Assembly: GCF_057098645.1 (NCBI RefSeq)
Contig: NZ_CM169472.1
Direction: 5' to 3' (one strand)
DNA length: 64,000 nucleotides
The notes beneath the pieces are model-generated. The model was not told where the DNA came from. It ran no database searches and worked only from the letters and a program-made list of their open reading frames with translations. A program made the translations under genes and the position numbers. Below are positions 28,094 through 29,289 of the stretch, piece by piece; position 1 is the stretch's first letter; each line of letters starts with the position of its first letter.

Positions 28094-29289
28094 GGAAGGT
28101 GCGAACAAGTTCCTGATATGAGATCATCATATTCATCCGGAGCGCATCCCAGAGGGACATCATGAGCCATCAACTCACCTTCGCCGATAGTGAATTCAGC
28201 ACTAAGCGCCGTCAGACCCGAAAAGAGATTTTCCTCTCCCGCATGGAGCAGATTCTGCCATGGCAGAATATGACCGCTGTCATCGAGCCGTTTTATCCCA
28301 AGGCGGGCAATGGCCGACGGCCCTATCCGCTGGAGACCATGCTGCGTATTCACTGCATGCAGCATTGGTACAACCTGAGCGACGGTGCCATGGAAGATGC
28401 CCTGTACGAAATCGCCTCCATGCGCCTGTTTGCCCGATTATCTCTGGATAGCGCCCTGCCGGATCGCACCACCATCATGAATTTCCGCCACCTGCTCGAG
28501 CAGCATCAACTGGCCCGTCAATTGTTCAAGACCATCAATCGCTGGCTGGCCGAAGCAGGCGTCATGATGACCCAAGGCACTTTGGTGGATGCCACCATCA
28601 TTGAGGCACCCAGCTCTACCAAGAACAAAGAGCAGCAACGCGATCCGGAGATGCATCAGACCAAGAAAGGCAATCAGTGGCACTTTGGCATGAAGGCCCA
28701 CATTGGTGTCGATGCCAAGAGTGGCCTGACCCACAGCCTAGTCACCACCGCGGCCAACGAGCATGACCTCAATCAGCTGGGTAATCTGCTTCATGGAGAG
28801 GAGCAATTTGTCTCAGCCGATGCCGGCTACCAAGGAGCGCCACAGCGCGAGGAGCTGGCCGAGGTGGATGTGGACTGGCTGATCGCCGAGCGTCCCGGCA
28901 AGGTAAAAACCTTGAAGCAGCATCCGCGCAAGAACAAAACGGCCATCAACATCGAATACATGAAAGCCAGCATCCGTGCCAGGGTGGAGCACCCGTTTCG
29001 CATCATCAAGCGGCAGTTCGGCTTCGTGAAAGCCAGATACAAGGGGCTGCTGAAAAACGATAACCAACTGGCGATGTTATTCACCCTGGCCAACCTGTTT
29101 CGGGTGGACCAAATGATACGTCAGTGGGAGAGATCTCAGTAAAAACCGGAAATAACGCCAGAAATGGTGGAAAAAATAGCCTAAATAGGCTGATTCGATG
29201 TGTTTGCGGGAAAAAAATCGGCCCAGATCCGCGAAATTTTAATCAACGAGTCAGCTTGGGAAGAAATGACCTGCTTATTCGCACCTTCC
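28094..29289 (+). mobile_element. IS5 insertion sequence, apparently intact, flanked by 4-bp TTAG target-site duplication
   Basis: Terminal inverted repeats GGAAGGTGCGAACAAG (28094-28109) and CTTATTCGCACCTTCC (ending 29289); length ~1.2 kb; TTAG at 28090-28093 and 29290-29293. Confidence 0.9.
28162..29142 (+). CDS. insH: IS5 transposase InsH
   Basis: 326-aa [38 protein letters not shown]... matching my recollection of IS5 InsH; lies inside the IS5 inverted repeats. Confidence 0.9.

Follow-up and report, generated by a model that had tools for sequence, protein, structure and literature searches.

The window analysed here, a stretch of 64,000 nucleotides, contains the nanC and fimB genes with the control region between them, and an insertion sequence lies within that region. 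The features of the locus are listed below in window positions. IS-free numbering counts from the fimB transcription start with the element removed.

26574..27290, minus strand: nanC, sialic acid outer-membrane channel, ATG at 27290.
27711-27730, minus strand: NanR operator with GGTATA repeats (reverse strand TGGTATAACAGGTATAAAGG), -758 to -744 in IS-free numbering.
27765..27787: probable NagC operator ONC1 (ATTTGCAATTCGTGTCACAAAAT), -707 to -685 in IS-free numbering, assigned from its sequence form and the published range.
27980..28000: probable NagC operator ONC2 (ATAATTCTCATCATGAAATAT), -491 to -471 in IS-free numbering.
28090-28093: TTAG target-site duplication, left copy.
28094..29289, plus strand: ISKpn26 (IS5 family), intact, 1196 bp.
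28094-28109, plus strand: left terminal inverted repeat GGAAGGTGCGAACAAG, 16 bp.
28162-29142, plus strand: transposase gene, 326 aa, intact ORF, in the same direction as fimB.
29274-29289, minus strand: right terminal inverted repeat GGAAGGTGCGAATAAG, 16 bp.
29290-29293: TTAG target-site duplication, right copy.
29478..29504, plus strand: SlyA operators OSA2 (CTAGGGACCTAA) and OSA1 (TTAGCATGATAA), exact matches to the published sites, overlapping H-NS2 and H-NS3.
29672, plus strand: putative fimB transcription start (+1), 271 nt before the ATG.
29943..30545, plus strand: fimB, 200 aa, intact, ATG at 29943.
31667..31980: fimS invertible element, 314 bp, both 9-bp repeats intact, phase OFF.

The nanC–fimB gap is 2652 bp long; minus 1200 bp it becomes 1452 bp, against 1455 bp in K-12. 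From the element to the gene starts, the distances are 803 bp (nanC) and 653 bp (fimB). These values agree with the first-pass annotation of this DNA, which had given about 800 and about 650 bp, and a gap of about 1.45 kb, as in K-12, if the element were taken out.

The element is structurally complete. The 16-bp terminal inverted repeats of the IS5 group (GGAAGGTGCGAAYAAG) have two matches in the 64-kb window, at a chance expectation of 0, and both are the element ends. The 4-bp duplication TTAG on both sides fits the YTAR target rule of the group. The transposase scores 367 bits against the NCBIfam model NF033581 (IS5-family transposase, cutoff 140) and has 98.2% amino acid identity to InsH of the K-12 IS5. 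The nucleotide sequence is more distant: there are 103 differences from K-12 IS5A in 1196 aligned positions, densest in the final 150 bp (the 3' end), and the element is one base longer than the K-12 IS5 (1195 bp), whereas true IS5 copies differ from IS5A at 0–5 positions. On the other hand, plasmid copies from Salmonella and E. coli, named ISKpn26 by PGAP, are identical to it over all 1196 bp. Hence, judged by its sequence, the element is ISKpn26, an IS5-group member and not IS5 sensu stricto, the name resting on these PGAP-annotated plasmid copies rather than on an ISfinder reference. It had been described initially as an intact IS5 with a TTAG duplication; the intactness and the duplication stand, while the name does not, since the identity is 91.4% to K-12 IS5A and 100% to ISKpn26. 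Copies at 99% identity or higher occur on at least 3683 plasmid records, mostly from Klebsiella and Escherichia. Plasmid or other ISKpn26 copies seemingly sharing about 26 bp of flank with the fimB locus were also considered; the two loci inspected were loose chance similarities among the top-ranked matches. The GC content of ISKpn26 is 53.6%, compared to 36% in the surrounding intergenic region.

The position of the insertion relative to the known regulatory sites can be given in fimB coordinates. The +1 was set at 29672 from the SlyA sites and published anchors: OSA1 is at -179 to -168 from the fimB transcription start with OSA2 3 bp upstream (McVicker et al., PMC3173223), and the fimB 5'UTR is 271 nt long (Moores et al., PMC3911127). 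The NanR and NagC operators have been placed between about -760 and -470, and the H-NS footprints extend from about -500 to +150 (PMC3173223). In IS-free numbering, the target TTAG is at -381/-382. Thus the distal NanR/NagC operators (-760 to -470) are on one side of the insertion and the SlyA/H-NS module (-194 to -167) is on the other, and the insertion point is within the published H-NS-bound range. The probable ONC2 site, whose position fits the limit of -470 given in PMC3173223, ends 93 bp from the left end of the element. All known operators responding to sialic acid and GlcNAc, that is, the operator for NanR and the two probable ones for NagC, remain with nanC, and the SlyA/H-NS module, the promoter, the 271-nt leader and fimB remain together on the other side of the element. 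The first-pass reading, in which the GGTATA repeat stays on the nanC side and the distal operators are moved about 1.2 kb away from fimB, is therefore borne out: the insertion, at about -381, is proximal to all NanR and NagC sites. An Rfam scan of positions 27000-30100 revealed no known RNA disrupted by the element, and fimB, fimE, fimS, fimA–H, the promoter and the leader all appear intact in the window.

The first 25 kb of the window are 100% identical to the chromosomes of O145:H28 EHEC. A synthetic empty site, joined from the window flanks, has a 100% match in 23 O145:H28 EHEC genomes. In one strain with the empty site, O145:H28 RM13514, the left flank has one mismatch in 6000 bp and the right flank three in 6200 bp; the two flanks overlap there by exactly TTAG, present in a single copy. 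The insertion itself is present in none of the complete O145 genomes. Since the flanks are nearly exactly those of O145:H28 and the site is empty in those genomes, the comparison identifies the insertion as a recent, clean transposition of ISKpn26 into an O145:H28-type strain. One may suspect a copy misplaced by the assembler, as ISKpn26 is multicopy in many strains and assemblers could be confused. However, such an artefact would give no target duplication, whereas here a site that is single-copy in the isogenic genomes is perfectly duplicated over 4 bp, and the same junctions are seen in six independent complete assemblies; we consider an artefact extremely improbable. The junction k-mer of this insertion is GATGATGTTTCACTTAGGGAAGGTGCGAA; a metagenome scan for the exact junction in both orientations yielded 0 matches.

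The left part of the window contains a five-gene defence-type island with helicases and a methylase (139-22909, plus strand), which is 100% identical in the O145:H28 genomes. A full-length match to DruE3 of Druantia type III (2182 bits) is accompanied by a second DruE-like helicase, which has an HNH tail. The other three genes encode an SNF2 helicase resembling DrmD, a type IIG RM/DrmMI-like enzyme, and a UvrD/NERD helicase resembling GajB. Of 5426 genomes, 512 contain 80% or more of the 25-kb query (window 1-25000) in which the island lies. The nanS gene beside the island (about 24403-25410, minus strand) appears truncated; PGAP labels its counterpart in RM13514 an incomplete sialate O-acetylesterase, and a frameshifted pseudogene with a transposase domain is close by.

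We searched 5,426 complete genomes with four junction queries, covering the left and the right junction for both orientations of the element. In 15 genomes an IS5-family element was found upstream of fimB, and nine of these have it at exactly the TTAG of the window. The equivalent of this tetranucleotide (window 28090-28093) in the IS-free K-12 genome is NC_000913.3 4540305-4540308. The carriers are listed below by position from the fimB +1, with the target sequence, the element variant and its orientation.

-543, CTAA: 702/18 (ISKpn26, plus); ST12468 (chimera, plus).
-381, TTAG: H15, SL124, EC05 (ISKpn26, plus); JMF1, CE0021a, LF3-1 (chimera, plus); EC20, EC22, HCM-25C-3 (IS5, minus).
-225, CTAA: MB22 (ISKpn26, plus).
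+1, TTAG: PM4-5 (chimera, minus).
+238, CTAG: ES4, PK5 (IS5, plus).

Three element variants and both orientations are represented at the -381 TTAG. The flank haplotypes of the window, H15, JMF1 and CE0021a are mutually distinct (36–78 differences in 2.5 kb), while LF3-1 has the same flank haplotype as SL124 and EC05, but another element variant. The three variants, the two orientations and the several flank haplotypes point to at least six independent insertions at one tetranucleotide. If about 12 events are spread evenly over the 29 YTAR sites of the nanC–fimB region, the probability that a site receives at least six of them is ~6e-5. Of the 5079 genomes possessing the -381 site, 5041 have it uninterrupted. 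Literature searches for an IS in the nanC–fimB region produced no relevant paper, and the study of IS5 hot spots (PMC5493358) does not mention the fim region; the recurrent TTAG target upstream of fimB is apparently undescribed and new here.

The chimeric variant is 1195 bp long, being similar to ISKpn26 at positions 1-1045 and to IS5 at positions 1046-1195. It is near-identical (0–1 differences) in JMF1, CE0021a, LF3-1, PM4-5 and ST12468, which are unrelated genomes, and hence is an established circulating variant.

IS5 hot spots have been proposed to have an AT-rich, easily melted (SIDD) context (PMC5493358). AT-richness or low duplex stability was rejected as the cause of recurrence in the present case, as the opposite was found: by nearest-neighbour energy, none of the 29 YTAR contexts is more stable than that of the -381 TTAG (instability rank 29/29 over both 60 and 100 bp), and the GC profile places it in the intergenic patch with the highest GC content. 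Of the four other insertion sites, three are likewise situated in stable, GC-richer patches. A preferred site in a stable patch of an H-NS-coated region would hint that the transposase may be guided by accessibility between H-NS tracts.

NanR and NagC activate fimB from distal sites, as the first-pass annotation had noted and as is documented (PMC3173223, PMC5401889). The plasmid-disseminated ISKpn26 has recently transposed into an O145:H28-type chromosome, so that 1.2 kb of GC-richer foreign DNA now stands between the distal activators and the fimB promoter. Spacing of this kind would weaken or abolish the NanR/NagC-dependent activation. The consequence would be a drop in basal fimB expression and in OFF-to-ON switching, and a weaker response of both to sialic acid and GlcNAc; switching would not be abolished, and the SlyA/H-NS control and the regulation of nanC would be unaffected. 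Activation reportedly became stronger when the distal sites were moved closer to fimB, in work of Sohanpal et al. from 2007, and thus it would depend on distance. Weakened NanR/NagC activation is the outcome that we favour as probably the most likely one, and we give about an even chance to the proposal that the recent insertion of plasmid-spread ISKpn26 weakens or abolishes this activation. The uncoupling of the OFF-to-ON switch from the sialic acid and GlcNAc signals, suggested initially, is plausible; the interpretation is plausible in its geometry, and the effect on fimB is putative.

As a counter-point, the natural operators already act over 470–760 bp, and another 1.2 kb may be tolerated. 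The element could then be a neutral passenger at a preferred transposition target, with the operators working across the extra DNA, e.g. by looping, and with fimB regulation essentially unchanged. Consistent with this, no known element lies between ONC2 and the SlyA sites, and the 270 bp downstream of ONC2 were reportedly dispensable in the same work of Sohanpal et al. from 2007. The junction query has a single chromosomal match in H15 and likewise in 702/18, hence the sole chromosomal IS5-like copy of these genomes sits upstream of fimB; this fits a targeting preference without selection. The reported distance dependence of activation argues against neutrality, as does the accumulation of further fim lesions in the carriers, described below. 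On balance, a neutral insertion seems rather improbable.

The phase of fimS was read in the carriers as well: it is OFF in eleven of them and ON in one (H15). The baseline is OFF in 4448 of 4707 genomes (94.5%), and the carriers thus do not differ from it, which a neutral insertion would also produce. There is no sign of an ON bias, of locking or of a loss of switching. Since H15, with ISKpn26 at -381, was assembled in phase ON, FimB-type switching still occurs and is not abolished. As a proxy for the phenotype, however, the 11 OFF and 1 ON orientations are uninformative beyond showing that switching is possible. The O157-type 16-bp deletion in fimS, which would make the insertion moot, is absent from the window. 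A cluster of substitutions relative to K-12 is seen inside fimS at about 31860-31900, where the window has CCACCTAGTTCAATATAAAAAACTGCAAATAAAG and K-12 has CCACCTCATGCAATATAAACATCTATAAATAAAG.

In published cases where IS5 has inserted upstream of a weak promoter or one silenced by H-NS (bgl, flhDC, glpFK, fucAO), the usual result is activation, and this is the second counter-point. The element might raise fimB expression or make it constitutive by two routes. It could interrupt the H-NS-bound tract (-500 to +150), as the insertion is inside the published footprint range; however, the key H-NS nucleation sites, H-NS2 and H-NS3, are intact downstream. Alternatively, the transposase promoter could read through the co-oriented element into fimB, possibly stimulated by the NagC/NanR complex, which is now about 100–400 bp upstream of the left end of the IS. 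Indeed, the transposase is co-oriented with fimB, no plus-strand terminator is predicted between the transposase stop (29142) and the fimB promoter, and an IS5 fusion promoter with read-through is documented at fucAO (PMC11894529). The orientation is also skewed to plus in the carriers (11 genomes against 4), but at the single site the skew is not significant (about six events against one). Similarly, the ON phase of H15 would agree with activation, whereas 11 of the 12 carriers are OFF, as is the baseline. The outward promoter activity that had been suggested for the element found no support, as no sigma-70-like outward or hybrid promoter is predicted at its right, fimB-proximal junction. Activation by IS5 has been documented by other routes, namely the IB bend/IHF element (PMC2753651) and a fusion promoter with read-through (PMC11894529). 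Finally, the IB element of IS5 acts at about -126 in a phase-dependent manner (PMC2753651), compared to 381 bp here, and ISKpn26 has TCGA where IS5 has TCAA in the IHF core. Activation of fimB by the insertion is, in our view, unlikely.

Besides the insertion itself, several carriers have further fim lesions. In CE0021a, EC05 and PK5, the IS5-family element forms the left boundary of a deletion by which the fim operon is lost partly or entirely. The stretches missing from these three genomes are fimB–fimH (towards gntP), fimB–fimA (up to fimI), and a region reaching into fimD, and in EC05 and PK5 the right-hand 4 bp no longer match as a duplication. In HCM-25C-3 fimB has a frameshift. In JMF1 an IS1 is situated between fimB and fimE (positions 6853-7550 of locus L001), in addition to the IS5-family element at -381. 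The extra decay of fim in the carriers is consistent with reduced, not enhanced, reliance on type 1 fimbriae.

We tentatively propose that the TTAG at -381 and the CTAA at -543 form an undescribed natural hot spot of the IS5 family, comparable to those at flhDC, bgl and glpFK. It may provide a recurrent, possibly selected, way for E. coli lineages to disconnect the phase switch of type 1 fimbriae from the sialic acid and GlcNAc signals of the host, and may seed IS-anchored deletions of the fim operon. Taken as a whole, this proposal is possible but less than likely.

As a single insertion, the case is ordinary genome variation; the added value is in the recurrent target site and the isogenic empty allele. 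The latter is publicly available in near-identical form in the O145:H28 genomes. The insertion allele together with these empty-site genomes constitutes a natural experiment on spacing and insulation in NanR/NagC activation from 470–760 bp. If the insertion does blunt the response to sialic acid and GlcNAc, the regulation of a major adhesin during inflammation would be different in the carriers. The reuse of the site across lineages and the follow-on fim deletions suggest that regulatory change and decay of fim take a predictable route under the action of a plasmid-spread element, one that is more familiar from the evolution of resistance in Klebsiella.

Among the closest known parallels are the IS5 and IS1 insertions upstream of flhDC and bglGFB, which derepress promoters silenced by H-NS or by a repressor. 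As there, an IS5-family element resides at a YTAR target in an AT-rich, H-NS-bound region several hundred base pairs upstream of a promoter, and the region is used recurrently across isolates. There are two differences. The upstream elements displaced here are the activators NanR and NagC, and hence the net expression may fall rather than rise; and the fimB site is in the most stable YTAR context, not in an AT-rich trough.

[quoted passage not shown] The fimB case is similar in that the element has its 3' end towards the downstream promoter and the same site is reused. On the other hand, the distance is 381 bp compared to about 126 bp, the minus orientation also occurs, and the 3' 150 bp are the most divergent part of ISKpn26. 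At the position aligned to the IHF core TCAA....TT in the 3' 177 bp of IS5, ISKpn26 has TCGATGTGTT, and a strict IHF consensus was not found in ISKpn26. Because of the distance and of TCGA in place of TCAA, a mechanism of the glpFK type appears unlikely here.

In the fucAO case, the transposase promoter is turned on by host sites upstream of IS5, and the resulting transcripts extend through the element (PMC11894529). Again, the element is co-oriented with the target gene, host regulator sites lie just upstream of its left end, and no terminator is predicted before the target gene. However, about 93 bp separate the IS end from the nearest operator, the probable ONC2, compared to -61.5, no Crp site was identified, and read-through at fimB is putative.

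In Klebsiella, ISKpn26 insertions are known in regulatory genes and promoters, with mgrB as one example. An insertion of the same element in rmpA has also been reported (PMC12889024). The common feature is a plasmid-spread element altering the regulation of virulence or resistance. The host and the target are different, and at fimB no gene is disrupted, but a promoter is separated from its distal operators.

[quoted passage not shown] Other examples are IS5 in fimE, obtained in laboratory evolution (PMC12956098), and IS1 in fimB of E. coli B (PMC5379014). All of these interrupt recombinase genes, whereas the insertion described here leaves fimB, its promoter and its leader intact.
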